Below are positions 5,155-64,000 of a DNA stretch of 64,000 nucleotides, in pieces. A program made the translations under genes and the position numbers. The stretch is from the UHGV virus genome UHGV-1363143, one strand, 5' to 3'. The notes under the pieces are model-generated. The model saw only the letters and a program-made list of their open reading frames with translations. It did not search any database and had not been told where the DNA came from. This DNA is from a virus. The stretch's first letter is position 1. Every line of letters starts with the position of its first letter.

Positions 5155-5532
5155 TTACACCGCCTTAAAAGGATCATCTTGTTTAATGTAAGATTTTCTT
5201 CCGAATTGTATGTCAGCAGCTTGATCTATTTTATTCATATATTCAACTGATAATGAGCCTATTTTTTCTCTTAACTGAGTCTTATTAATAGTAGTAATTT
5301 GTTCTAATAGAGCCATAGAAGGTTCTTTTAAACCAAAGCCTTCAATTAATACATGCACACATAACTCTTTAAGCTCACTACTCAATGGAATAGCTTGAAG
5401 AACTGGTGCGAATATGTTATTTGTGTTATTTGAATAAATTATTACTGGTCTAACGCCAATTTGCTGATTCCCTATTCCATACAATTCAGCATAGAAAATA
5501 TCTCCTCTTCTTATTTTTGGTCCTCTCCCCAT
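5155..5532 (-). CDS. mazF: MazF/PemK (NdoA)-family endoribonuclease toxin
   Basis: RGDIFYAELYGIGNQQIGVRPVIIYSNNTNN...LLEQITTINKTQL aligns along its length with Bacillus NdoA/MazF ([29 protein letters not shown]...). Confidence 0.7.
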   Translation of the reverse strand: MGRGPKIRRGDIFYAELYGIGNQQIGVRPVIIYSNNTNNIFAPVLQAIPLSSELKELCVHVLIEGFGLKEPSMALLEQITTINKTQLREKIGSLSVEYMNKIDQAADIQFGRKSYIKQDDPFKAV

Positions 5533-50074: not shown

Positions 50075-50149
50075 TGGCGGAACTAGTAGGATTCGAACCT
50101 ACAACCTATCGGTTAACAGCCGAGTGCTCCACCTTTGAGCTGTAGTTCC
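50075..50149 (-). tRNA. tRNA-Asn (GUU)
   Basis: Manual cloverleaf with acceptor ggaacta/tagttcc, T-loop GGTTCGAATCC, anticodon loop cuGUUaa, and CCA encoded. Confidence 0.7.
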
Positions 50150-50934
50150 ATAATTCCAGCGTCCGTATGGACCTGGAGATCTCCTTCTATCTTAGATAGA
50201 TGAGCTAATGTAAGCACCACATTTTATAATCCCTTGCATGGATTGGGCAGGCACCATTATTTTTACATGCATGGTTGCATTGACCTAGCTTACTTTTTGT
50301 TCTTTCGGTCTTATTGATTATTACTATCCCACTCGTGAATAGCATATTTGTTTGAAACAATCGCCTGCACAATGCAAGCCCCAGAAAGAGTTTATCTTTC
50401 AAAATTAATGCAAGGTGGGGTGGCGTATCCCACATCTCTAACCATAACAATATATGTAGTATAGACTGCCTGTTTCTACTTCTTGCATTTTTATATCTAA
50501 TTGCTTACTTGAAAAACACGAGCTAATTACATTAGCTACTAAAACTCATAAGCATAAATATACCTTCTTATAAGAGTTCCTAATCTATGTCTAAATAAGA
50601 AGTATATTAGTTTCATAAGGATATAGATTAGGTTTCACCTTACTTTTTATTATTGCTTGAAAAAACCCTAAAAATTACTAAGCAATATATATATTCTTCT
50701 CACTTCCGAAACCAGCACTCCATGTCCTTCGAATATATAGTTTTTTTGTTTCGCTGATCTGGTCCTCTATGCAAAACTTTAAAGGGAAATTTGCTTACCG
50801 CCACAGTTCCTTCCTGCTCGTCCATAAGCTATTAAGTAGATAAATTACTCCTACTTAACTAGTGCGTCTCCAGTGAGCATAGTAAATCAGGCCAATCAAA
50901 TCAGCTAAATACCAGAGGCTTGAGAGGTTCTATT

Positions 50935-51008
50935 TGGAGCTCCTACTCAGAATCGAACTGAGAACAGAAGATTACAAGTCTACCGTTTTACCTTTAAACT
51001 ATAGGAGC
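50935..51008 (-). tRNA. tRNA-Thr (UGU)
   Basis: Cloverleaf with acceptor gctccta/taggagc, anticodon loop cuUGUaa, and CCA encoded. Confidence 0.6.
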
Positions 51009-51164
51009 ATATAATACTTTCGGTGTGCTACAGAAATCTAAGTTTCTGTTAATAGGCAAGGCTGTCTATATCAGGTATTCAGTAATTATGTACACTTTTA
51101 ACTGAACCATACTATATATCCCTACACGCTACTCTTAACTATAAGAACACCGAAAATATTATAA

Positions 51165-51239
51165 TGGTACTCCATGGGGGACTCGAACCCCCGATACACG
51201 ATAGAAAGTCGTGTGGCTTAACCACTTGCCGAATGGAGC
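51165..51239 (-). tRNA. tRNA-Glu (UUC), probable
   Basis: Cloverleaf with T-arm ggggg/ccccc and anticodon stem cacga/tcgtg; the loop cuUUCua has an unusual U37. Confidence 0.5.
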
Positions 51240-51318
51240 ATAATTTGTGCTATCTCTTTTAGCTTGTACTTCGCCAAGGATGATAGCTATCCTTATCTGT
51301 ACAAATTACAGATTTCTC

Positions 51319-51390
51319 TGGTGCAGATTGCTGGAATCGAACCAACCCTTATAATCTTATAGAAAACGCTCTACCTTGAGCTAATCTGCA
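51319..51390 (-). tRNA. tRNA-like element with intact acceptor, D and T arms but no foldable anticodon stem (possible pseudo-tRNA)
   Basis: gcagatt...ggttcgattccagcaatctgcacca carries the right length between the D and T arms, but the segment UUUUCUAUAAGAUUAUA cannot form a 5-bp stem. Confidence 0.3.
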
Positions 51391-52418
51391 TATTATATTT
51401 CCAGAGCTTTCAGATCCTATCTCTGGTACTCAACTTTTGCAGCATTATTGATTCTCTGCTTATCCACATTCTCTTGAATGTATTGAGTTATGCCTGCCTT
51501 GTTTAATGAGTGGCTTATCTCATCTAATAGTACACTACTCTACACCATTGATTATATCAACCTTGCGGGCTGTTCAGGCTGCTACCCCTTATACGCTCTC
51601 CGATATAGAACAATCAAGCTTTTGCGAAGCTATCATGCGCTTCATTCACTTTTCAGTGTGAAGCATTAAGACACTTTCATGCACTACGAGGATGAACTTT
51701 CGCTTTTATATAGAATTAATATCTGTAAATTCTTAAATATTGTTTTATTTCCCAAAACATATAGCTTAAATTCATCATTCATTAAATTTTCAAACTGTAG
51801 ATGTGTCATCCTATCAGCTCGCTTCCCTTTTGAGGAAGTAAATACTGGACACCTACATAGCTTTCACTCAACTAAGTTACTAACTGGTAATAAATCATAC
51901 TCTAGGATACCTCCGTCTCTCAACTTCTAAGGTCCTATTTCATTTTTATTACTGGCCAATGCTCTTGCCTGTTAAACTCGAACTACTAACCTTCTGCTAT
52001 AAATAGTTTATTTCATTAGTTTTGGTGTGTGCTATCTGATTACCAGTCAGAAACTCCTTCAGAGAGTATATCCCCTACTTTCTTACCAGCGTTGCCCATA
52101 AGCGAGCTTTCGCACCTAACTTATAAAACCTTATCCAATAATCGTCTTTATCTCTTCCGCCTACTGAATAACATTTAAATTTATGCAGATTGCTTGAATT
52201 AACCTAATATTTCAAGGCGAGAATTTGTTAAATTCCCTTTACGCACATCACTGTACGCTATTCATGTCAAGCCATGTTTACTTATTTTTTTTATAGAACC
52301 TAGTACAGATTCTTGTATGTAATTCCTACCTCTATTACATACTAGGCTCTTGCCTACCGATGTTTTCCTTATTTAAAACTAAGTACTGAAAAGAAAACTC
52401 ATAACCAAAAATCGTACT

Positions 52419-52494
52419 TGGTGAAGGTAGAAGGGTTTGAACCTTCGGCCCCAGCATTAAAAGTGCTATGCTCTACCAACTGAGCTATACCTTC
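52419..52494 (-). tRNA. tRNA-Lys (UUU)
   Basis: Cloverleaf with D-arm gctcagttggtagagc, anticodon loop cuUUUaa, and CCA encoded. Confidence 0.75.
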
Positions 52495-52501
52495 ATATTA
52501 T

Positions 52502-52578
52502 TGGTAGTGGATATAAGAGTCGAACTTATCACCTTCTGCGTATCAGGCAGATGCTCTAACCAAATGAGCTAATCCACT
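52502..52578 (-). tRNA. tRNA-Ile (GAU)
   Basis: Cloverleaf with anticodon stem tctgc/gcaga and loop cuGAUac. Confidence 0.75.
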
Positions 52579-52584
52579 ATATTA

Positions 52585-52669
52585 TGGTGGGAACTGATGG
52601 AGTCGAACCACCCGAGCTAAAGCAACAGATTTACAGTCTGCCCCGCTACCATCTACGGTATAAATTCCC
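52585..52669 (-). tRNA. tRNA-Tyr (GUA), type II (long variable arm)
   Basis: 85 nt, anticodon loop cuGUAaa, long variable arm. Confidence 0.65.
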
Positions 52670-52763
52670 GTATTGACATTGTTAATTGGCTAAATTATTA
52701 TAATTGTAAATGTACTATACTTACAAAGAACTAGATCAATCTTCGGATTGGTCTTTTTCTTAT

Positions 52764-52850
52764 TGGCAGGGGCTGTAGGATTCGAACCTACGTGGTGTTG
52801 TGCACAATGGTTTTGGAGACCACCGCCCTCGACCTCTAGGCAAAACCCCT
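52764..52850 (-). tRNA. tRNA with Trp anticodon (CCA) and an atypical 15-nt variable arm
   Basis: Acceptor and anticodon arm (gguggu-CUCCAaa-accau) resemble bacterial tRNA-Trp, but the gene is 87 nt with the insert ugugcacaacaccac before the T-arm. Confidence 0.5.
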
Positions 52851-52985
52851 GTAAATCTCCCGATTAGTTTAAAGACATTTATGGGACTGGTCATTAGAGA
52901 GGTCTTATGTATAAATTAAAACGTTATGCATAAATATATTATGTTAACATCTATAAAAAGACTACTGATTTGAAAAACTTTTTTA

Positions 52986-53072
52986 TGGCGGAGAGTCTGG
53001 GACTCGAACCCAGAAGCCATTACTGACCAACAGTTTTCAAGACTGTCTGACTACCAATTATCACAACTCTCC
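52986..53072 (-). tRNA. tRNA-Ser (UGA)
   Basis: 87 nt with acceptor ggagagt/actctcc, anticodon stem acagt/actgt, loop cuUGAaa and a long variable arm. Confidence 0.7.
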
Positions 53073-53090
53073 ATGTTTATAGGAGAAAAC

Positions 53091-53170
53091 GAAATAGGTG
53101 ATAGGAATTGAACCTACACTTACTGCCATCCCTATCTCTAGCTGGCCTTGCTTCATTCTCCTGTTGCAAC
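53091..53170 (-). tRNA. tRNA-like remnant (T-arm-like gtagg-ttcaatt-cctat only)
   Basis: An 80-nt spacer between tRNA-Gln and tRNA-Ser contains a T-arm-like hairpin and a 7-bp aggagaa/ttctcct pairing, but no canonical cloverleaf. Confidence 0.25.
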
Positions 53171-53245
53171 TGGCGGAGGTGGAAGGGATTGAACCTTCGA
53201 ATGATGGAATCAAAATCCATTGCCTTACCACTTGGCGACACCTCT
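53171..53245 (-). tRNA. tRNA-Gln (UUG)
   Basis: D-arm gccaagtggtaaggc (Gln-like), anticodon loop uuUUGau, weak 1-72 pair, and G73. Confidence 0.65.
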
Positions 53246-53446
53246 ATATAAAATGGCAATTTTACCGTTTGCCAAACGTTCTATGGTTTATACAAAAACT
53301 CATATCGTAAAATTTAAACGGGCTTAAGTGCCCTAAATTCTGGCATTTCACCACGGGTATTTAGCAACCCAGGATTTTTATTATTGAATCTAATAAATTA
53401 AGATCCGTTCTAAGCACTGCAAAAAAATCTTAAAAAAATTTCGCTT

Positions 53447-53522
53447 TGGTCGGAGTTACAGGACTCGAACCTGTGATCTCATGGTCCCAAACCATGCACC
53501 TTACCATCTAGGCCAAACTCCG
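53447..53522 (-). tRNA. tRNA-Pro (UGG)
   Basis: cggagtt acceptor, anticodon stem catgg/ccatg, loop uuUGGga. Confidence 0.75.
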
Positions 53523-53531
53523 ATATATAAA

Positions 53532-53623
53532 TGGCGGAGGACACAGGATTCGAACCTGCGGAGGAACTTTCGTCCCTCGAATGCTTAGCAAGCACCTGCC
53601 TTAAACCTCTCGGCCAATCCTCC
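53532..53623 (-). tRNA. tRNA-Ser (GCU)
   Basis: 92 nt with ggaggat acceptor, loop uuGCUaa and a long variable arm. Confidence 0.7.
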
Positions 53624-53713
53624 ATATTAATAGCTCATTTTGGTCAGTTGAGCTAAACTGTAGTCTATAAGACTAAAAAATGAACATTGGAATTTAATAT
53701 TGAATTGAATTAG

Positions 53714-53790
53714 TGGCGACTCACAAGGGGATCGAACCCTCGACCTCTGGCGTGACAGGCCAGCACTCTAACCATCTGAGCTAGTGAGCC
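53714..53790 (-). tRNA. tRNA-Asp (GUC)
   Basis: Anticodon stem ctggc/gccag with loop cuGUCac. Confidence 0.75.
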
Positions 53791-53796
53791 ATATTA

Positions 53797-53885
53797 TGGT
53801 GTCGTGAGAAGGATTCGAACCTCCAACCACCTGAGTCTTGTTAATGGAGCTCCCTCAGTGCGTATACCAATTCCGCCACCACGAC
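53797..53885 (-). tRNA. tRNA-Leu-like gene with an expanded 18-nt anticodon loop
   Basis: Leu-type D-arm gcggaattggtatacgc and good acceptor/T arms, but ctgag-[ggagctccattaacaaga]-ctcag replaces the 7-nt loop. Confidence 0.4.
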
Positions 53886-54040: not shown

Positions 54041-55018
54041 TTACAGCTTTGCTAATAAATCATTAGCTATTGCATTAATGTTTCTTGACCATGTGGTACC
54101 TTCGCAATATTTTGTATTTACATTCCATATGCTAGGTCCATTATAATGAGCTCCTCCTTCAGTAAGGTAAGCAGTATTAATAAGATTAGCTATATAATTT
54201 AAGCTCTCTCCCCAATTATCAAATCTTCTCCATGAGTTACCTTTTTTAACTCCACCAATATTATTATATGTTCTAGCTAAATAAGATCTTCCATGTCCTG
54301 ATTCTTCCGAGTTAAGTGCTATTAAGAATATTGCATTTACATTGTATTTCTTTTCTGCATAATAATATGCTTTTGATAATGATTGTAATGCACTGCCCTC
54401 TAACATTTTATGAATTTGAGACTCTGATAAATTACTTAATTCTCTCAAGTTATAAGGATTATAATGAGGAATTCCATCTACTTGTTTTTGTACTTTTGGT
54501 TCCTTATATACTTCATATGGTGGGTTTTCTTGATATTGTTCAACTAATGACATATCAATAAAACCTTCTTTGCCATTATAATTAATTTTTAACCAGTTCC
54601 ATTGTCTTTCAATTATCTCAAAAGTCATACCTTTTCTAAATAAAAGAATTACTTCTGAATCATAATTAGGTTCTGTTCTAAAACGAGAATAGTCAGCGAT
54701 AACTTGTCCATATTTTTGATGTTCAGTTTTTAATCTTTGCTCTTCTTCTAACCTTTCTTGCTCTAGTCTTTTTTGTTCAACCATTTCTAAATGTTTCTCA
54801 TAAATGTTTTTGGGACTCATAAAAATAGGATTTGTAAGAGATTGGTCTTCTATTGATAGCTCTATTGCTGCAGGTTCTAATTTATTATTAATACGCATGT
54901 TATTACTTGCAGTATCAAAACAATGTACTGGCAAAAATGTAGATGTATATGCATATAAACCAGCTAAGCATTTAGCTAAATGTGTCATAAAAACACTCCT
55001 TTCTGATTTCTCCCTCAT
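54041..55018 (-). CDS. endolysin: N-terminal SH3-like domain + GH73 N-acetylglucosaminidase
   Basis: C-terminal LNSEESGHGRS...YNNIGGVKKG...WRRFDNWGESLNYIANLI matches the GH73 (FlgJ/LytD-type) catalytic region. A central SH3-like segment reads FRKGMTFEIIERQWNWLKINYNGKEGFID. Confidence 0.6.
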   Translation of the reverse strand: MREKSERSVFMTHLAKCLAGLYAYTSTFLPVHCFDTASNNMRINNKLEPAAIELSIEDQSLTNPIFMSPKNIYEKHLEMVEQKRLEQERLEEEQRLKTEHQKYGQVIADYSRFRTEPNYDSEVILLFRKGMTFEIIERQWNWLKINYNGKEGFIDMSLVEQYQENPPYEVYKEPKVQKQVDGIPHYNPYNLRELSNLSESQIHKMLEGSALQSLSKAYYYAEKKYNVNAIFLIALNSEESGHGRSYLARTYNNIGGVKKGNSWRRFDNWGESLNYIANLINTAYLTEGGAHYNGPSIWNVNTKYCEGTTWSRNINAIANDLLAKL

Positions 55019-55988: not shown

Positions 55989-56748
55989 GTTAGGTCCTTT
56001 CTTTTATAGAGATTAGGAGTTGCTAGATGATAAAACTGTTTAAAGCTAATACATAAAACAATGACGAAACAGTTTATGCTATTTTATTACATAAAAAAAA
56101 GATTATAAAAAATATAATCTTAGTAATTCTGTGCTTTTCCCTTGTATTTCGAAAGAATCTTTTATTTTTTTTTATTCACAAGTAGTCTATTATTTTTTAG
56201 CAACATAATATAAAAACGTTAAGCGATTAACAGTACATATTATGGAGCATACACCAAAGATGAATGCAGTTGCCCTATTACTTAAACATGGGAACCTTGC
56301 AAAAGGAGTCTTGCGAAGACTATAAAGATTTCCTACCGAAAGGTAAGGATACAGAAAGCACAGCTGATGCAAAATAGTGCCTCTGGACAGTAAATGGCCA
56401 TTCCCCTAGCACATGGTCGTTCAGGTTGAGACGTGATGACGACGTAATGGTCAGGAGGGAGTTCTGGGTGCATAGATGCACGGGAACTATAAGCAATTAC
56501 ATGGACAGAACCAATGTAGCAAAAGCTTATAGGTGTTTAACACATAACTGCTAGGGTGTAAGATAGTGATACGATTGACATATACGAAGCACAGATTATA
56601 GTTATTCTTTATTGATTGTAAAATTATATAGTATTTTGTATTTTTTTACAATTGGTAAGGAAATAACTATATCCGTTCCACTCCGAGCATGCCGAAGTAC
56701 AGGTGCTTTTCGCTTCTCTATACAAAACGTTCATAATTTTAAACGCTC

Positions 56749-56943: not shown

Positions 56944-57073
56944 TTAAAAGCCTCCTACTTTTTTATTTTTAAAGTAGTCTTCTTCTTTAGCTTCTTAAAT
57001 AACTTATCTAATTCTTTATCCTTATTATTCATTATTGCTTGTACCTCTCTTTTTAAAATATTTATTTAGATTG

Positions 57074-57108
57074 TTGACATAATAATAAATTCTTATACAT
57101 ATAATTTT
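57074..57108 (+). promoter_or_regulatory. putative sigma-A-type promoter for the 57137 gene
   Basis: TTGACA at 57074-57079 with TATAAT-like hexamers 17-20 nt downstream. RBS gaaagggg sits before the ATG at 57137. Confidence 0.35.
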
Positions 57109-57136
57109 ACATAACACTATTGAAAGGGGTACGCTT

Positions 57137-57700
57137 ATGTTAAATACAGTTAAAAAGCCATCATTATTATGTAGAGTAGCAATCGGAATTGATAATTTCA
57201 TAGAGAGACTATTTGCAGTAGAAAGTGATCCTGAATTCGAATTATGCATACCAGATAGTATTCTTCATAGAACTGAACTTATATGTGAATACATTAAAAC
57301 TGAAAAAGGATATGATTTCGAAGTTGAAGGATTTCTTATGCTTTTATATTTAGACTTCATAAAGAATTGTATTAAAAGCTACAATCCACGCAAAGTATTT
57401 AAGCAATTAACTAAGGAACACTATCAAGATCAATATTTGACTGCTGTTAACTGTGGTGTCCCTGAGATAATACCTATTATTAAATACAGCAAAACTAATC
57501 TAGTTATCAGTATGGCCGAAGAAGACGTTAGGAAGGGCCAACTAATACTAGATGAATTATATGACTTATATGGATATAGAATTCCTTTCTCCAAACTTCT
57601 TGAAAACCTATGGATAGGATTCATTGAAGATTACAAAACTGGAGAAAATAAAAGAGCTTATTACTCAATAGTAAAAATTCTTAAAGAATGCATTGATTAA
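57137..57700 (+). CDS. hypothetical protein (187 aa)
   Basis: ORF; first gene of the plus-strand module. Confidence 0.4.
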   Translation: MLNTVKKPSLLCRVAIGIDNFIERLFAVESDPEFELCIPDSILHRTELICEYIKTEKGYDFEVEGFLMLLYLDFIKNCIKSYNPRKVFKQLTKEHYQDQYLTAVNCGVPEIIPIIKYSKTNLVISMAEEDVRKGQLILDELYDLYGYRIPFSKLLENLWIGFIEDYKTGENKRAYYSIVKILKECID

Positions 57701-57814
57701 GCTCCCTTGAATATGCGTTGTATTTTTCGATTCTTTTCGAAAAAACATTGCTTTTATAATAATTTATAGGTACAATGTAGATACAACGTATATGCAAAAA
57801 AGCTTAGGGAGGTA

Positions 57815-58819
57815 ATGTTAATGTCAAAGAATTCTAAGAAGTATGTTTTAGTACTTGACTTGGGTAAAGGTGTAGCGAAAGGTTTAGGCTGTGAAATCAC
57901 AGATAGTATACCTAATCCAGAATCATTAAAAAAATCTATGTTTGAAACAAAGAGTTATGATTTAAATAAAGGTTATACTGAATTACAAGGAAATTCTCAT
58001 AAAGTAGATTTCAATGGTAGCTCAGTAATTTTAGGTGAACAAGGCGTAGATCGTAGCTTTGAAACTAGTAAAACTACTCCACTTCATCAAATGTGTGCTT
58101 ACACATTAATTAGCCAATATCTTGAACCTGATACTAAGGATAATGAAATATATCTTGTTCTTGCTTGTCCTATAACAGTATTAAAGAGTGATAAAGCTAA
58201 GCAAGAATATAAAAACCTTATTAAGGGTGATGGACCTATATCAATAACTGTTAATGATAAATATTATGAATTTGAAATTAAAGATATCTTAATTAAGGCT
58301 GAAAGTTCAGGAGTATTATATTTAATGCCTGAAGAATTTAAAGATAAAAAAATTCTAGTGGTAGACTTTGGTGGTCTTAATATGACTAATACTATCTTTA
58401 CTAATGGAGTATGTGTTAATCCTGAAAATGATAGATTTGCTGAAGAATGGGGATCTGTTGAATTAATCAATAAAGTAAGTAAACACTTAACAGATTATTC
58501 TAAAGGTAATATTGTAGATTTCCAAACTTCTGAAGAAGCTTTAAATAGAGGTCACTTATTAGAATATGGAAAACCTGATTTAGCTTCTACTGAATATATA
58601 GAAAGAGCTAAACAAGAGTTTATAGATGACTCTCTTAAAAAATTAGCTAGACATAATGTAAGAACAAAGAACTTAGATAAAATAATCTATATTGGAGGAA
58701 CTAGTTCTTACTTAAAAGACCAAATAAAAGCGTTACCTAATGGTCAAATCACAGATAATCCTCAATGGTCTTCCGTAGAAGGCTTATTAAAAATCGCTAT
58801 TAAAAAATATATTAAATAA
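57815..58819 (+). CDS. actin-like segregation ATPase (ParM/StbA/Alp family)
   Basis: Three actin-fold phosphate/adenosine motifs spaced as in ParM: LVLDLGKG, ILVVDFGGLNMTNT and IIYIGGTSSYL. Confidence 0.55.
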   Translation: MLMSKNSKKYVLVLDLGKGVAKGLGCEITDSIPNPESLKKSMFETKSYDLNKGYTELQGNSHKVDFNGSSVILGEQGVDRSFETSKTTPLHQMCAYTLISQYLEPDTKDNEIYLVLACPITVLKSDKAKQEYKNLIKGDGPISITVNDKYYEFEIKDILIKAESSGVLYLMPEEFKDKKILVVDFGGLNMTNTIFTNGVCVNPENDRFAEEWGSVELINKVSKHLTDYSKGNIVDFQTSEEALNRGHLLEYGKPDLASTEYIERAKQEFIDDSLKKLARHNVRTKNLDKIIYIGGTSSYLKDQIKALPNGQITDNPQWSSVEGLLKIAIKKYIK

Positions 58820-58821
58820 CC

Positions 58822-59139
58822 ATGTCTAAAAGACCAGGCTCATTTGTTTTCACATTTAGTAAAAAGAACGAAGATGTGAAAAATATCATTGACAATAAAA
58901 AGAAATCCGATAAAAATTTTGTAAAAACTGACTACATGTGTGCTGCAGTTAGATTTTATGAAAAATATAAGGATAACTTTAATGATAACTCTTCTCTTAG
59001 CGAGAATGATGTAATAAGAATAGTCAATGAAATATTAAAAAACAATCAAATTAGTGTTGATAGTGATGTGAATGTAATTAATACTTCACTTAATTTAAAC
59101 ACAGATCACATATCAGATAGCGATTTAGAGGAAGATTAA
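58822..59139 (+). CDS. hypothetical protein (105 aa), possible ParR-like adaptor
   Basis: Small ORF 3 nt after the parM-like gene; no motif recognised. Confidence 0.3.
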   Translation: MSKRPGSFVFTFSKKNEDVKNIIDNKKKSDKNFVKTDYMCAAVRFYEKYKDNFNDNSSLSENDVIRIVNEILKNNQISVDSDVNVINTSLNLNTDHISDSDLEED

Positions 59140-59174
59140 AGCACTGTATAATTCAGTGCTTTTTTGATATAATT

Positions 59175-60500
59175 ATGAATAATAGAGAGGTGATAAATGT
59201 GGACGAATACTTATTTAGTTTTATTATAGAAAATATAAATAAAGATAAGGAACTTAAAGAATTTTATGATAAATATTATTATGAATATTCTGAGATACCT
59301 TATGAGGATTACATAAAAGAATTATGCATTGATAATCCTGAATTCTTTAAATCTGAATTTGATGAGCATAGAAAAAAGATTTTAAAAGCCTATATAAACA
59401 CTCGCTCAAGATTAAATAAAAAAGCGGTAGTTATAGGTAGACTTATAAACTTTCCTTTAGCATCTGAATCTAAAAAAACTACCTTGAAATCAATTGTTGA
59501 CAACGAATTGAAGTTATTACTAATTGAAAATATAAAAGAATTTTTTGAAGTAAATTCTAAAATCACTGAAAGACCTTTATCTTTAGATGGAATGTACACT
59601 ACTAAAGAAAAAATGACTTTATATGATGCTGATTCTACATTAGATATTAACGATAGAAAAGCCTATATGAGTGAAGAGAAATATAAACGTCAGATAGGCA
59701 TTGTTCAACCTCTATTCTTTGCAAACCCTACTACTGAAGTAATATTTGTAAAAAAAGGTGAAAAGTCATATCTTAAGTCAAAATCAATGGATACTAAAGA
59801 CCAAAAGATAATGGACTTTTTAATAGAAGAATATAAACAAGTAATGTACTATCCAGATCAAGTTTTAATTTATCCTATTCATCAAATATCAAAGCTGATA
59901 TATAACAGAAAGGGTAAACAATATTTAGACTTAACTAGGGATAGATTAGCTAAAATAGGTAACTTAGGTCAGATAGTTTTTAATGATTCTATAATTAATA
60001 AAAAAGATGCACAAGGTAAGTTAATAGATCCTAAAGATAATTACGAAATAGTAAGTTTTTTCGATATTCAATTCTTCACTAATGAATTAGGTGTACGTTT
60101 TTGTAAAATACTTATGTCTAGATCTATTGAATATGATTTAAAAACTAGCAATACAATAAAGCTATACAAACATAAGATTGAGCAAATAAAAAATGACTTT
60201 ACAGCTATCTTTGTAAACTTTATTCAGTCTCAGCGTATTAACTCTTTAATTTCTGATGAAGATGAGGCTATAGTACCATATAAAGTAATTAAAACTGGAA
60301 TAAGACTTCCTAATGCAAGAAGTAAAGTTAAGAATTTAAAAGTAATTGAAGAATCTTTAGAAGAACTAGTTAATATGAACTTCTTAATTGATTCTTATGA
60401 AGTTAAAAATACTTATATTAAATTGCATTTCATACCATTTGGATATATAGAGCTAAAAGAACTTAAACTTGATTCTAAGGCTAAAGAGTTAGAAATCTAA
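59175..60500 (+). CDS. hypothetical protein (441 aa), candidate replication initiator
   Basis: Large ORF ending 5 bp upstream of the iteron array. Confidence 0.3.
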   Translation: MNNREVINVDEYLFSFIIENINKDKELKEFYDKYYYEYSEIPYEDYIKELCIDNPEFFKSEFDEHRKKILKAYINTRSRLNKKAVVIGRLINFPLASESKKTTLKSIVDNELKLLLIENIKEFFEVNSKITERPLSLDGMYTTKEKMTLYDADSTLDINDRKAYMSEEKYKRQIGIVQPLFFANPTTEVIFVKKGEKSYLKSKSMDTKDQKIMDFLIEEYKQVMYYPDQVLIYPIHQISKLIYNRKGKQYLDLTRDRLAKIGNLGQIVFNDSIINKKDAQGKLIDPKDNYEIVSFFDIQFFTNELGVRFCKILMSRSIEYDLKTSNTIKLYKHKIEQIKNDFTAIFVNFIQSQRINSLISDEDEAIVPYKVIKTGIRLPNARSKVKNLKVIEESLEELVNMNFLIDSYEVKNTYIKLHFIPFGYIELKELKLDSKAKELEI

Positions 60501-60519
60501 TTTTCTAGCTCTTTTATTT

Positions 60520-60855
60520 TTTAAATTACAGATGCATTTTTTAGGTACTATATTTAAATTACAGATGCATTTTTTAGGTACTATATAAAAAAGAGATGCA
60601 CTTTTTTGGTGCTATATCGACACAGAAGTGCATTTTTTAAGTGCTATATTGATACTTTTTTTATAAGTGCATTTTTATCAATTATTTAACCTTTAAAAAG
60701 TTTTTTAAAATTTATGATTTTAAAACTAGAGATGCATTTTTTAGGTACTATATTAATATAGAAGTGCATTTTTTTGGTGCTATATTAAAACTAGAGATGT
60801 ATTTTTTAGGTACTATATCAACATAGAAGTGCATTTTTTTGGTGCTATATTAATA
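60520..60855. repeat. iteron array (candidate replication origin or partition centromere)
   Basis: About nine direct copies of a ~24-bp unit (agatgcattttttaggtactatat / gaagtgcatttttttggtgctatat variants) at about 31-34 bp spacing. Confidence 0.7.
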
Positions 60856-60918
60856 CTTTTCACAAATTAGACATAATAATTTTTTTAATATAAACTATGT
60901 TTATAATTAGAATATTAT

Positions 60919-61935
60919 GTGAAAGGAGTGAAAACTATGGTAACAAAACAGATGATTAAATTAAGTAAGCAACTACTTTTAGACTTATCTTCTCTTAAAT
61001 ATACTCAAGATGACAGTGTAAACCTTCAACCAGAGTATAGAGATTATAAGAAATGTAGTGCTAATTGTCCGTTTTATAAAAATAAGGATGTTTCATTGTT
61101 TTGTCAAAAAGAGTGTGTATTTGTTTTATCTACTAGCTCATTAATAAAGCCTAGAGAAAACATACTTACTTATACTCAAATAAAACAGTTATTATATTAT
61201 AACTCAACTGTATTTGAAAACAATGGAATAACCATAGAGCTTTCACATAAGGATGTAGCTAAAGCTATTAACTGTTCGGAAAGAACAGCTAGAGATAATA
61301 TTAATGCTTTAGTTAAAGCTGGTTACATTGTAATATCTTCATATAATGATAATAAATACAAGGTGTTTATCAGGGATTATCATAAGTATCATGAAAATGG
61401 TAATCGTGGACATCTTTATTTGAGCAATAAATGTTTTAAAGCTTTAATAAAAATAGATAACATAAATACATTAAGATTAGCTTTAGTTGGATTAGTGCGT
61501 CTTGATGATATGCGTGCATCTAAAGATAAAAATCCTTCTAAAGAATTATCTTATAAAGCTCTAATTAACTTATTGCCTTCAAATATAACTTGCCCTAAGC
61601 AAATAGTTAAAATATTTACTAAGGCTAAAGAATTATTTAAAATGACATTCAAAGACGAATCTATATCTATATCTTTTAATAAGGACATAGATTCATTGGC
61701 ATACGCAAAAAGCCTTAATAAAAATAATAAGAAGGCATTATCTAAATTCCTTAAAAGATTTGAATTAACTGTAACTAATAAGGATAAAGAAGATCTTCTT
61801 CAAATGTCTATCCAATATAATATTCATATTGTAACAAAGGCGTTTAATTATATAAAGGATAAAAATCCTGATGAGTTAGGATCATATTTAAGAACAGTTA
61901 TAAGAAATAACTTCAATTCTTTAATTTCTTGTTAA
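60919..61935 (+). CDS. HTH-containing protein, candidate replication or regulatory protein
   Basis: HTH-like segment VAKAINCSERTARDNINALVKAGYIVI. Starts 60 bp after the iterons. Confidence 0.35.
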   Translation: MKGVKTMVTKQMIKLSKQLLLDLSSLKYTQDDSVNLQPEYRDYKKCSANCPFYKNKDVSLFCQKECVFVLSTSSLIKPRENILTYTQIKQLLYYNSTVFENNGITIELSHKDVAKAINCSERTARDNINALVKAGYIVISSYNDNKYKVFIRDYHKYHENGNRGHLYLSNKCFKALIKIDNINTLRLALVGLVRLDDMRASKDKNPSKELSYKALINLLPSNITCPKQIVKIFTKAKELFKMTFKDESISISFNKDIDSLAYAKSLNKNNKKALSKFLKRFELTVTNKDKEDLLQMSIQYNIHIVTKAFNYIKDKNPDELGSYLRTVIRNNFNSLISC

Positions 61936-62744
61936 ATTAGGGCTTTTTTGTTGTGCCCTTTTTTATTATTTTTACCTATTTGGGATATAAAACTAATGAT
62001 AGCTATTACATTTTATATTATTTTTGTTGATAACCTGTTGATAATATGTGAGTAATAGCTTTTTTATTCACAAGTCAAGGAAAAAAAGATTGTTAGTAAT
62101 TAAAAATAAACTGTTTATAAGTAAAAAAAATTTGTTACTAAAATTTTTTAATATCTTAATAACAAAAAAATATATGTATATAGTTTTAAAAAGATGTGTT
62201 GATAAGAATTTATTAAATCGAAGTTAATTCCATGAGTCAAGTATTTATCCTATCTAACACATCCTTGAAGCATAAATTTATTAACACTAACTTCTCTCCT
62301 ATAACTTCTGTTTTATAACCTCTGCTCTATTAACGACTGGAGAGATAACTACTAATATATATATGTCATAATTTTTTAAGTATGCTTCTATTTATTTTAT
62401 TTAAAGTATTCCCTACTGTTTTTCTTTTAGCTCTTTTGATAATCTTTTTGGGATTACCAGTAAGTACAGTTTCTATATCATTAATTGTAGAAGCTATTTT
62501 ATTAATAGTTCTAGATGTATCGTAAAAAACTTTAGATATTTTTTTCACTTAATACTCTCCTTTCATATTAAGGTTTTAATATTCAAAATTCAAGATATTT
62601 TATAATATATTTTCAATTTTAAATATTATTAAATTTCCTATTAGTAAATCTAATATACTCTATATTATAGAATAAAATAGATTTTCGTTGTATATCGAAA
62701 AAAATGTGCTATAATTTTCTTATAACTATAAAAAAGGGAGATGA

Positions 62745-63560
62745 ATGTTTATGCCTAAAACTATAGCTATAGGTACCTTTAAAGGTGGAGTTGGAAAAAC
62801 AATGACTACTTTTAATTTAGCAGGTATATTAGCTGAGAGAAATTACAAAGTATTGTGTATAGATGTAGATCCTCAAGGAAATCTAACAAGTAATCTTGGA
62901 ATTAATAGAGCTAATAATGGCTTAGTTGGTGTTGAAGCTATATTTAGTGAAAACTCTACAGTTAATCTTAACGATATAATAATAAAAAGTCCAATAGAGC
63001 AACTACCAACATTAGATCTTTTACCTAGCACAGTTTTGCTTCATAAATCTGAATTATTTATGGCATTAGCTCCTGCTAGAGAACTAAAGTTAAAGTATTT
63101 CATGATGGATAATAAAGAGGTTCTTGATAACTACGATTATATTTTAATAGATACTAATCCTAGTATGGGATATCTTAATCAAAATGCATTTGTAGTTGCA
63201 GATAAAATTATTATGCCAGCAACTGCAGATTTATCAGATTTAGATGGAATACATCTATTCTGTGCATTATGGGATGATTTAAGAGAAAAATTACGTATAG
63301 ACGATAATATAGCTGCTGTAGTTACTACTAAGAATGACAAAAGAGTTTCTCTTGATAGAAGTTTTATTGAACATATTAAAACTACAGAAGATAATGAAGA
63401 TATAGCAGAATTATTAGTAGATACAATAATTCCTGTCAATGTTACTCTTAAGGAAGCAGCAATGAGCTGTCAACCTATTAATCTTTATAATAAGAATTGT
63501 ATTGGTTATCAAGCTTATAAAAAATTGGTAGATGAGCTATTCGAAAGAGGTGTATTCTAA
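62745..63560 (+). CDS. parA: ParA/Soj-family partition ATPase
   Basis: Deviant Walker A KGGVGKT (IAIGTFKGGVGKTMTT) and the typical ParA length and downstream motifs. Confidence 0.85.
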   Translation: MFMPKTIAIGTFKGGVGKTMTTFNLAGILAERNYKVLCIDVDPQGNLTSNLGINRANNGLVGVEAIFSENSTVNLNDIIIKSPIEQLPTLDLLPSTVLLHKSELFMALAPARELKLKYFMMDNKEVLDNYDYILIDTNPSMGYLNQNAFVVADKIIMPATADLSDLDGIHLFCALWDDLREKLRIDDNIAAVVTTKNDKRVSLDRSFIEHIKTTEDNEDIAELLVDTIIPVNVTLKEAAMSCQPINLYNKNCIGYQAYKKLVDELFERGVF

Positions 63561-64000
63561 TGGCCAGAAAGTCTACAGGTAATAAATTCAGTTCCATTGC
63601 TAATTCAACTCCTCGTAATTTACCATTTAGAGAAACTCTTACCATAGAAGATAGAATTGCATATGATAAGCTTAGTCCTGAGGAACAAAGTGGATATGAG
63701 CAGTTTTGTATTGATAATGTAAATAATAATAGTATTGAAGATTATCTTCACTATAGTAAATCAAAGTCTACTCCTAAAATAGTAACTAAAGCTACTAAAA
63801 ATACAACTAAACCTATTGAACAGCCAGTAGAAATAAATATATCAGAAACTAATATAAAAACTGATATAACTGATTATAATCCAGTTCAAAGTGTTCAAAG
63901 TATGATAAATAAAAACTTATCTATTGAAGAAGAAGCTGGTAAAAATATATCTGTTTATTTAAGTGCTGAAGCATTAAACGTAGTTTCTGTATATATGAAA
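63560..64000 (+). CDS. hypothetical protein, 5' part (possible partition partner of ParA), continues beyond the window
   Basis: ATG overlaps the parA stop (taATGg). The frame stays open to the window end and the protein is Lys/Asn-rich. Confidence 0.35.
   Translation, partial: MARKSTGNKFSSIANSTPRNLPFRETLTIEDRIAYDKLSPEEQSGYEQFCIDNVNNNSIEDYLHYSKSKSTPKIVTKATKNTTKPIEQPVEINISETNIKTDITDYNPVQSVQSMINKNLSIEEEAGKNISVYLSAEALNVVSVYMK

Follow-up and report, generated by a model that had tools for sequence, protein, structure and literature searches.

The last 7 kb of a 64,000-nt stretch of the virus genome UHGV-1363143 (hereafter the window) were analysed together with the phage genes to their left. The results suggested that this island, which covers ~57.1-64 kb of the window and ~0.1 kb beyond it, is probably a maintenance region of the plasmid type, through which a temperate jumbo phage (~240 kb) of a Clostridium-like human-gut host would persist as a low-copy, extrachromosomal phage-plasmid. 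The observations behind this reading were homologies, folds, repeats, co-variation, synteny and a terminase gene on the same molecule. In the island, a replicon composed of the candidate initiator Rep441, an iteron array, a second initiator-like protein (p338) and a cluster of DnaA boxes lies between two partition cassettes. One of them encodes an actin-like ATPase (ALP) with a small downstream protein (p105), and the other a ParA ATPase with a ParB-like partner. The positions of all features are given in Table 1.

Iterons and Rep441

The initial annotation had listed about nine iterons of ~24 bp with ~32-bp spacing, flanked by two candidate Rep or helix-turn-helix (HTH) proteins. Both points were borne out. 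The array contained eight full copies of a 22-nt core, RTGCAYTTTTTWDGTRCTATAT, and one degenerate copy. The full copies all shared the plus strand and formed two four-copy blocks with a spacing of 31-33 bp (starts at 60532, 60565, 60596, 60628, 60732, 60764, 60797 and 60829), and the first began 32 bp after the stop codon of Rep441. The core had no copy elsewhere in the 64 kb. By chance 0.14 copies were expected, and none of 100 shuffled sequences reached eight. The 84% A+T spacer between the blocks is a candidate DNA-unwinding element (DUE); a comparable A/T-rich spacer divides the iteron array of an Alkalihalophilus plasmid homolog. The two flanking candidates also stood, Rep441 by homology to a plasmid family and p338 by a RepE/pi-like model, with their starts corrected to give 433 and 332 aa. 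These later starts (59199 and 60937) agreed with the ribosome-binding sites.

The array was compared with those of related loci (designated by L numbers). Every relative had four iterons with ~32-bp spacing, and these were followed immediately by a conserved promoter-like sequence and then by the gene for p338. The 3' half of the iteron, GGNTATAWA, was conserved across the relatives and the 5' half varied. It was ATGCAT in the window, ATGTAT in L011, ATACGC in both L010 and L015, GGTGCC in L013, CCGACG in L014 and GTGAAT in L016. The proteins of L015 were 87% (p187), 85% (p338), 92% (ParA), 68% (ParB-like partner) and 48% (Rep441) identical to those of the window. L015 and L010, which share their iterons, had Rep441 proteins with 76% identity, and p338 proteins with only 47%. 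At the DNA level, the window and L015 were 82-89% identical on both flanks. The alignment was patchy at ~69% over 59160-60525, and there was no alignment over the iterons at 60526-60837. The right edge of the swapped segment was the exact end of the iteron array. These comparisons indicated that the iterons travel and diverge with Rep441 and not with p338, and that the pair appears to have been swapped as a cassette; the relationship is correlative. Binding of the iterons by p338 alone is unlikely: the window and L015 differ in their iterons but have p338 proteins of 85% identity, and L015 and L010 have the same iterons with a p338 identity of only 47%.

A difference in copy number was observed among close relatives. 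L005 (11280-11560, corresponding to window positions 60515-60936) had only four iterons, with the distal block and the spacer gone and the proteins 100% identical. L006 and L007 kept eight, so that the copy number is polymorphic between strains. The loss in L005 apparently came from recombination or deletion between iterons.

Rep441 had no match in Pfam, PHROG, NCBIfam or PDB sequences, and nine close homologs were also without a Pfam match. A profile search led to a family of ~470-500-aa proteins, and hhalign against 40 of them gave a probability of 99.94% (E 5.9e-37, 393 columns). The identity to this Bacillales plasmid family was 21-26%. Its named members came from Exiguobacterium, Gracilibacillus and Alkalihalophilus, and one was annotated as 'replication initiator protein A'. 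The Exiguobacterium and Alkalihalophilus matches were found in complete plasmid records, and Priestia plasmids held matches as well. Eight of the 40 plasmid-family homologs matched Pfam RPA (best 1.6e-6) and one matched Rep3_N. By sequence, neither Rep441 nor p338 belongs to Pfam Rep_3 (PF01051) or RPA (PF10134), and the link of Rep441 to these families is transitive. The AlphaFold2 (AF2) model of Rep441 had a predicted local distance difference test score (pLDDT) of 66 and contained, in its C-terminal half, two alpha/beta units resembling winged helices. The best PDB fold match, RctB domains 2-3, was weak (E 3e-3, template-modelling score 0.18-0.27). These results suggested that Rep441 is a candidate replication initiator of the plasmid type.

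The layout of the Alkalihalophilus plasmid homolog was the same as that of the window: gene, terminator, five repeats with a 31-32 bp period, AT-rich spacer and four repeats. The protein beside those plasmid iterons is not a homolog of p338. Pairs of Rep441-family and p338-family genes were also found in other Clostridial contigs, including L047 (a 134-kb contig), in divergent orientation. At the one locus examined for repeats, L044 from a Hadza gut metagenome (protein labelled 'uncultured Clostridium sp.'), 31-bp repeats lay between the two genes. This locus also had TGTTAATAA runs after the p338 homolog and a ParA with a 106-aa partner. The recurrence of the pairs therefore suggested that the replicon design is recurrent and not an accident of one phage.

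p338 and the sequences downstream of its gene

The AF2 model of p338 (pLDDT 81.6, predicted template-modelling score 0.76) had two winged-helix domains in tandem and a helical bundle at the C-terminus. The top PDB matches in Foldseek were all initiators of iteron plasmids, namely a Rep-DUE complex (8ac8, E 9.9e-5), RepE54 (1rep, 4e-4) and pi (2nra, 5.6e-3), with a probability of 1.0. By sequence, p338 had no significant PDB match and only sub-threshold HTH matches in Pfam. Its matches in PHROG, a DnaD-like helicase loader and replication initiators (1e-3 to 1e-5), were weak but consistent. Four Cys were conserved, and the C-terminal helical tail resembled DnaD. A 90% homolog was named 'replication protein O [Caudoviricetes sp.]', and distant homologs were found on plasmids of Clostridium botulinum, C. 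tagluense and C. difficile. The model thus points to p338 as a second initiator-like protein with a RepE/pi-like double winged-helix fold.

In the putative recognition helix of p338, R116, T117, D120 and N121 were invariant in seven aligned loci, whatever the iteron type. T117 and N121 alone stayed invariant in an alignment of 17 sequences. A conserved target is probable if p338 binds DNA, namely the invariant iteron half, the promoter region or a set of 14-nt repeats. The promoter-like segment between the last iteron and the p338 gene was conserved in all relatives.

Two elements downstream of the p338 gene, the DnaA-box cluster and the 14-nt repeats, were not part of the initial annotation. 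The clustering of the DnaA boxes had a Poisson P of 1.8e-7. The cluster was located at the same position in every relative that reached the region (L016 ends within the p338 gene), and perfect TGTGGATAA/TTATCCACA boxes were present in L015, L013 and L010. The TAACTTCTNNNNTA repeats may be bound by p338. They are not parS, because they are conserved in L010, which is without ParAB.

Two partition cassettes

A ParM-like ATPase with a small downstream ORF (open reading frame) and a ParA with an overlapping partner had been proposed from the letters of the window, giving one type II and one type I system. Homology searches upheld both assignments. ALP matched Pfam ALP_N with an E value of 3.2e-11 (44.1 bits, over the cut-off of 26.3 bits). 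It also matched PHROG 691 'partition protein' end to end (E 4.3e-39) and, by phmmer, ALP12 of the Clostridium tetani plasmid pE88 (PDB 4APW) over residues 7-332 (E 9.6e-86). The motifs LDLGKG, VDFGGLN and IGGTS were present. Among 30 plasmid records with an ALP homolog, 27 were from Clostridium (ParM/StbA genes, including that of pE88), with identities of 45-51% and ~45% to the pE88 gene. Judged by these matches, ALP is an Alp12-family actin-like ATPase and the predicted motor of a type II partition system, which would form filaments and stabilise the element. The Clostridium bias of its homologs was the best clue to the host, which is probably Clostridium-like.

The gene for p105 always followed the ALP gene in the relatives. 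In Clostridium phage CWou-2020a, the ORF that comes after the ParM/StbA gene had 42% identity to p105. The N-terminus of p105, RPGSFVFTFSKKN, looked like a beta-strand followed by helices, and its C-terminal tail was acidic (DSDLEED). Because p105 had no Pfam, NCBIfam or PDB sequence match, its fold is a prediction only. The region upstream of the ALP gene contained three copies of TACAAYGYAKA, one inverted (57711-57723) and two direct (57771-57781 and 57782-57792), which are too few and too short for statistics. The ALP-carrying loci L014 and L016 had motifs at equivalent positions (AATGTATGT). This region is a candidate operator or centromere of the type II system.

ParA matched Pfam AAA_31 (E 1.7e-40, from residue 5), CbiA (3.8e-19) and ParA (5e-9), and PHROG 164 'ParA-like partition protein' (E 3.1e-56). 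A deviant Walker A motif, KGGVGKT, was present at residues 11-17. ParA is therefore unambiguously a small Walker-type partition ATPase, of type Ib-like organisation and without an N-terminal DNA-binding domain. Its ParB-like partner had a conserved basic peptide, MARKSTGNKFSSIA, at the N-terminus and an invariant segment, AGKNISVYLS...NRS..LI, in five aligned homologs. The C-terminal sequence KNISVYLS-AEALNLV-NRSKLIE fits a strand-helix-helix pattern and looks like a ribbon-helix-helix. Pfam RHH_1 was matched weakly (E 0.13) by one homolog alone, and there was no significant PDB sequence match for the partner. Upstream of parA, the palindrome CTATTAG-N5-CTAATA was conserved in comparison with L011, L014 and L015. 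Together with the box ATCGAAAAAARTGTGCTATAAT it forms a candidate operator or centromere of the type I system.

A second palindrome, TTTCG-N8-CGAAA, occurred at 57725-57742 and 62683-62700, once upstream of each partition operon (two in 64 kb against 0.03 expected). It was considered as a shared operator and dropped, since it is not conserved in L014, L015 and L016 and is kept at one site of two in L006 and L011.

The ALP pair was absent in L013 and L015, and L010 had neither ALP nor ParAB at the locus. All three retained p187, Rep441, the iterons, p338 and the DnaA boxes. Both partition cassettes are thus accessory within the phage family and vary independently among relatives.

Phage genes on the same molecule

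The switch to the plus strand in the last 7 kb, as first noted, was clear: all ORFs of at least 120 aa in 1-55664 lay on the minus strand, and the next five (57137-63560) on the plus strand. The GC skew changed sign over the island. We rejected it as an origin marker, since it flips only within the island and returns to negative on its right; the skew therefore tracks the coding strand.

The window encodes GroEL, NrdD, primase, a NadR-like enzyme, two helicases and a UvsX/RecA-like recombinase. It also encodes both subunits of a gyrase-like topoisomerase II, ClpX/ClpP-like proteins, an endolysin and 14 tRNAs. DNA polymerase III (Pol III) alpha is part of this self-sufficient jumbo-phage gene set. 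A PemK/MazF-type toxin gene (5155-5532, minus strand, 125 aa, Pfam PemK_toxin) is followed on the same strand by a 137-aa ORF, and the two could form an addiction module, which would fit plasmid-like maintenance. This content of GroEL, NrdD, primase, topoisomerase, endolysin, tRNA and toxin genes is, alone, no proof of a virus.

Rep441 was found at 100% identity on contigs from human-gut metagenomes, the longest of 238,262 bp. The gut samples with the element include ERZ1755708 and ERZ914104. A 91%-identical copy of the module was found on IMGVR_UViG_3300014583_000001 (241,249 bp) and on OBZL01000003.1 (241,204 bp), so that three independent contigs of 238-241 kb carry the module. No near-identical DNA to the 7-kb island was present in the phage and plasmid collections searched. 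Rep441 was not found in any genome of the GTDB species collection, and the host was not identified in that way.

A walk along IMGVR_UViG_3300014583_000001 met genes of replication and metabolism alone before it reached a large terminase gene ~40 kb from the module, at ~64.2-67.4 kb of the contig (L041, 16333-19513). It matched phrog_2 with its N-terminal ATPase part (E 9.6e-25) and its C-terminal nuclease part (9.5e-5), and was interrupted by an endonuclease ORF (phrog_4645, E 3.9e-59). An amidase endolysin, the second of the element, adjoined the split terminase. Phage hallmarks and plasmid replication and partition genes are therefore on one molecule. The phage-like genome proposed in the initial annotation was borne out by this split terminase and the two endolysins, on a 241-kb contig with the related module. 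IMG/VR classes the contig as viral, and a p338 homolog is labelled Caudoviricetes in nr. The best terminase matches in the plasmid collection were circular Bacillus and Paenibacillus "plasmids" of 200-260 kb with 44-47% identity, among them the 235,424-bp element pBtic235 of B. thuringiensis israelensis. The best matches in the phage collection were jumbo phages, for example 0305phi8-36, vB_BceM_WH1 and Moorella MTATph1. Altogether ~130 kb of the ~241-kb element was inspected, and ~110 kb lies outside. In the inspected parts, no capsid, portal or tail genes were found, and no integrase or repressor was seen.

Proposed mechanism

From these results we infer the phage-plasmid lifestyle with extrachromosomal maintenance, and likewise all DNA binding, origin firing and filament formation in the following scheme. 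Rep441 would bind the direct iterons, which comprise four core copies and, in the lineage of the window, four extra copies, three helical turns apart. Together with p338 and with host DnaA on the box cluster, Rep441 would melt the AT-rich DNA alongside and recruit the helicase and primase that the phage encodes. Because the proximal iterons abut the p338 promoter, the initiator bound there would probably also repress p338. The Alp12-type filament system would distribute the copies, with the 105-aa ParR-like adaptor acting on the short repeats around its own promoter. The type Ib-like ParA and its small, ribbon-helix-helix-like partner would provide a second segregation cassette.

A broader proposal is put forward tentatively, and we regard it as doubtful. 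The island may represent a class of two-initiator replicons of Clostridial plasmids and jumbo phages, with a swappable Rep441/iteron specificity cassette, a conserved p338 and an upstream RNA in control. In such a class, the fast-evolving Rep441-family protein and the variable iteron half may set incompatibility. p338 may read the invariant iteron half, the 14-nt repeats or both, and fire the origin with host DnaA. The ~450-nt RNA upstream on the same strand, which is described below, may be part of the control of the replicon.

Alternative explanations

The phage-plasmid reading is supported by the descent of every module from plasmids, by the cultured members of the terminase lineage, which are carried as plasmids, and by the addiction-type toxin gene. 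Indirect backing for extrachromosomal maintenance also comes from the three contigs of 238-241 kb and from the lack of the initiator in GTDB genomes. Several points weigh against it. There is no host isolate and no direct sign of a circular extrachromosomal state or of lysogeny, and an integrase or repressor could sit elsewhere, as the inspection covered part of the element. Neither initiator-like protein reaches any Pfam threshold, and for Rep441 the model is moderate (pLDDT 66) and the fold match weak. The co-variation of iterons and Rep441 could partly reflect physical linkage in one recombined segment. No centromere was pinned down with confidence. Finally, L010 keeps the replicon without either partition cassette at the locus, and therefore the replicon may simply be the general origin of the phage.

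This last point leads to the main rival, which we consider unlikely. In this view, a virulent jumbo phage would use the island as its general lytic-cycle origin, and its two ATPases, the actin-like one and ParA, would position or move replicating phage DNA in the infected cell and would not segregate a plasmid prophage. There are precedents in the tubulin PhuZ of nucleus-forming jumbo phages and in the prophage actin AlpC, without which viral DNA replicates inefficiently. The core of p187, Rep441, iterons, p338 and DnaA boxes is conserved even in L010, with no ALP or ParAB at the locus. The phage has a self-sufficient set of Pol III alpha, primase, helicases, topoisomerase II, NrdD, GroEL and 14 tRNAs, and the ~130 kb examined gave no repressor or integrase. 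However, ALP shares 45-51% identity with the partition ATPases that small Clostridium plasmids encode and has kept its ParR-like partner, and ParA with a small partner is the classic arrangement of low-copy plasmids. Genuine plasmids carry relatives of Rep441 that have the same iteron layout, and the nearest relatives of the terminase are carried as 200-260 kb plasmids in isolates. In pBtic235, moreover, lytic growth does not require the repA region, which is tied to quiescence (PMC9700832).

It is improbable that the element is a megaplasmid or defective plasmid prophage which acquired phage genes and makes no virions, the island being its plasmid backbone. The interruption of the terminase gene by an endonuclease ORF would fit this, but the terminase is also interrupted, by a LAGLIDADG endonuclease, in pBtic235, which makes infectious virions. 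The structural genes for capsid, portal and tail were not identified in the parts inspected, but the ~110 kb outside them could easily accommodate a structural module. In favour of this reading, both the rep and the par modules resemble those of plasmids; on the other side stand the two endolysins, the viral class of the contig in IMG/VR and the Caudoviricetes homolog in nr.

Finally, it is very hard to sustain that the repeats serve partition, as a parC/parS-like centromere to which an adaptor binds, and not replication, as an origin: type II and type Ib centromeres, such as parC of R1, are also short direct repeats in two blocks, but the array is kept in L013 and L015 without the ALP pair and in L010 without ALP and ParAB, its sequence tracks Rep441 and not the ParB-like partner (in L015, where the iterons differ, Rep441 is 48%, ParA 92% and the partner 68% identical), and the homologous plasmid initiator has the same array. 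The iterons were thus rejected as the centromere of either par system, and their retention in relatives without ALP, ParAB or both assigns them to the replicon.

Candidate upstream RNA and other features

A non-coding stretch directly upstream of the island (~56285-56720, plus strand) was more conserved than the neighbouring genes, with homologous stretches in L011, L013, L014, L015 and L016. The alifold energy was -82.8 kcal/mol on the plus strand, with a covariation term of -4.1, and -56.2 with +0.8 on the minus strand. Compensatory changes occurred in 23 of 109 predicted pairs, whereas shuffles gave 6.4 +/- 2.1 and slid controls 2-6 such pairs. The z-score of the single sequence was -4.5. 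There was no match to an Rfam family even at E <= 10, and a conserved motif taken from the stretch was found only in the same IMG/VR contig. An RNase P-like RNA was suspected and had no Rfam support. The stretch is a candidate conserved structured RNA of ~450 nt on the same strand as the island.

The first gene of the island, p187, was located upstream of the initiator gene in all eight relatives (34-100% identity) and had no Pfam, PHROG or NCBIfam match. The box TTTTTTGATATAAT upstream of the initiator gene was present in the ALP-less L015 and L010 and in the ALP-carrying L011 and L016. The ALP-less L013 had just GATATAAT, and L014 was without the box. For the small basic ORF next to the 14-nt repeats, gene calls of 60 aa (L005), 44 aa (L006) and 74 aa (L013) were obtained.

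The tRNA array (50075-53885) contained two further RNAs on the minus strand, a GOLLD RNA (RF02032, 171.8 bits) at 51412-51857 and a skipping-rope RNA (RF02924, 58.2 bits) at 50407-50489. One of the 14 tRNAs, at 51319-51389, was unusual: a tRNA-Tyr with a low score, whose anticodon is ATA.

Table 1. Features of the island and its left flank, with window coordinates.
Feature	Position	Strand	Description
Endolysin gene	54041-55018		In the window
p187 gene	57137-57700	+	187 aa, conserved; opens the plus-strand island
Promoter-like region of the ALP operon	57701-57820	+	Three 11-nt TACAAYGYAKA copies
ALP gene	57821-58819	+	332 aa, actin-like ATPase (Pfam, phmmer, PHROG)
p105 gene	58822-59139	+	105 aa, candidate ParR-like adaptor; starts 2 nt after the ALP gene
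Terminator-like hairpin	59138-59162	+	At the end of the ALP cassette; next comes TGATATAAT, a promoter-like box for the initiator gene
Rep441 gene	59199-60500	+	GTG start; more likely 433 aa than 441 (gene-caller starts on identical contigs)
Terminator-like hairpin	60483-60514	+	After the Rep441 gene
Distal iteron block	60532-60649	+	4 copies
Iteron spacer	60650-60731	.	82 bp, 84% A+T; degenerate ninth iteron at ~60664, conserved AAATTYRTGAWTTT box
Proximal iteron block	60732-60850	+	4 copies; present in every relative
Promoter-like segment and p338 ribosome-binding site	60851-60936	+	CAAATTAGACATAA...TATAAACT
p338 gene	60937-61935	+	More likely 332 aa than 338 (gene-caller start on identical contigs)
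DnaA-box cluster	62020-62215	.	Five TGTNNATAA/TTATNNACA boxes in 196 bp, 83-87% A+T
14-nt direct repeats	62288-62330	+	Three copies of TAACTTCTNNNNTA; conserved in all relatives including L010
Small basic ORF	62366-62548	-	60 aa; adjoins the 14-nt repeats
parA promoter region	62549-62750	+	Palindrome CTATTAG-N5-CTAATA and box ATCGAAAAAARTGTGCTATAAT
ParA gene	62751-63560	+	269 aa (Pfam, PHROG, Walker A motif)
ParB-like partner gene	63560-64000	+	Runs past the window end; 168 aa in L005; TAATG overlap with parA

Comparison with known systems

Phage-plasmids, including jumbo ones, are already known (PMC9700832, PMC7969092), and the concept is not new. The present analysis would extend the pBtic235-type lineage to uncultured Clostridia-like hosts of the human gut, with a different maintenance module. 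It adds a testable replicon (Rep441, iterons, p338 and DnaA boxes) with families that recur on Clostridium botulinum and C. difficile plasmids, and the natural cassette swap predicts which protein reads the iterons. Sister jumbo phages gain and lose the partition cassettes, a variation that is relevant to how such phages switch lifestyle. In addition, the region could seed shuttle vectors for gut Clostridia.

pBtic235 has been established by experiment as an inducible, low-copy jumbo phage-plasmid, and a clear-plaque mutant of it had lost ~10 kb including repA (PMC9700832). It resembles the present element in size (235 kb vs ~240 kb) and in the terminase, which is 44-47% identical and interrupted by a homing-endonuclease gene in both. 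Both also have tRNAs, their own RecA-like, ligase and topoisomerase genes, and a separate plasmid module with a rep gene. However, the maintenance modules are not detectably related. Rep441 had no B. thuringiensis match at E <= 1e-3, and ALP matched no Bacillus plasmid at E <= 1e-20. The present element is known from metagenomes alone, probably has a gut Clostridium-like host, and its plasmid state is one that we infer.

Several known replicons place phased repeats, an AT-rich stretch, DnaA boxes and an initiator gene together, as in the iteron theta replicons of mini-F (RepE), R6K (pi), RK2 (TrfA) and P1 (RepA/oriR). The island shares these features, and modelled p338 has the tandem winged-helix Rep fold. 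In the plasmid-maintenance region of P1, the replicon is followed by parA-parB, an order that resembles the island. The island differs in having two initiator-like proteins, a spacing of 31-33 bp and a bipartite iteron with a variable 5' half and a conserved 3' half. Its initiator-like proteins have no Pfam Rep_3 score, and p338 has an extra Cys cluster and the tail resembling DnaD. The Bacillales family of ~480-aa 'replication initiator protein A' (WP_289237070, on a 158-kb plasmid of Alkalihalophilus pseudofirmus) has 393-column homology to Rep441 and the same array layout. However, the identity is 21-26%, and no p338 homolog is beside the plasmid gene. No experimental study of this family or of the replicon protein families of the island was found in the literature.

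Alp12 segregates pE88, the tetanus-toxin plasmid, and forms four-stranded filaments (PMC5193048). ALP resembles this Alp12/CtParM (PDB 4APW) in its full-length homology, ~45% identity and the small gene directly downstream. However, Alp12 belongs to a 74-kb toxin plasmid, whereas ALP belongs to an accessory jumbo-phage cassette that some sister phages lack. The occurrence of type I and type II loci on one replicon is described for the double par locus of pB171 and for ParAB with StbAB of Shigella pINV (PMC6519299, PMC9178275). The island is similar to these in combining an actin-type and a Walker-type system on one replicon. Those replicons are enterobacterial plasmids, whereas the cassettes described here flank a phage replicon and vary independently among its relatives.

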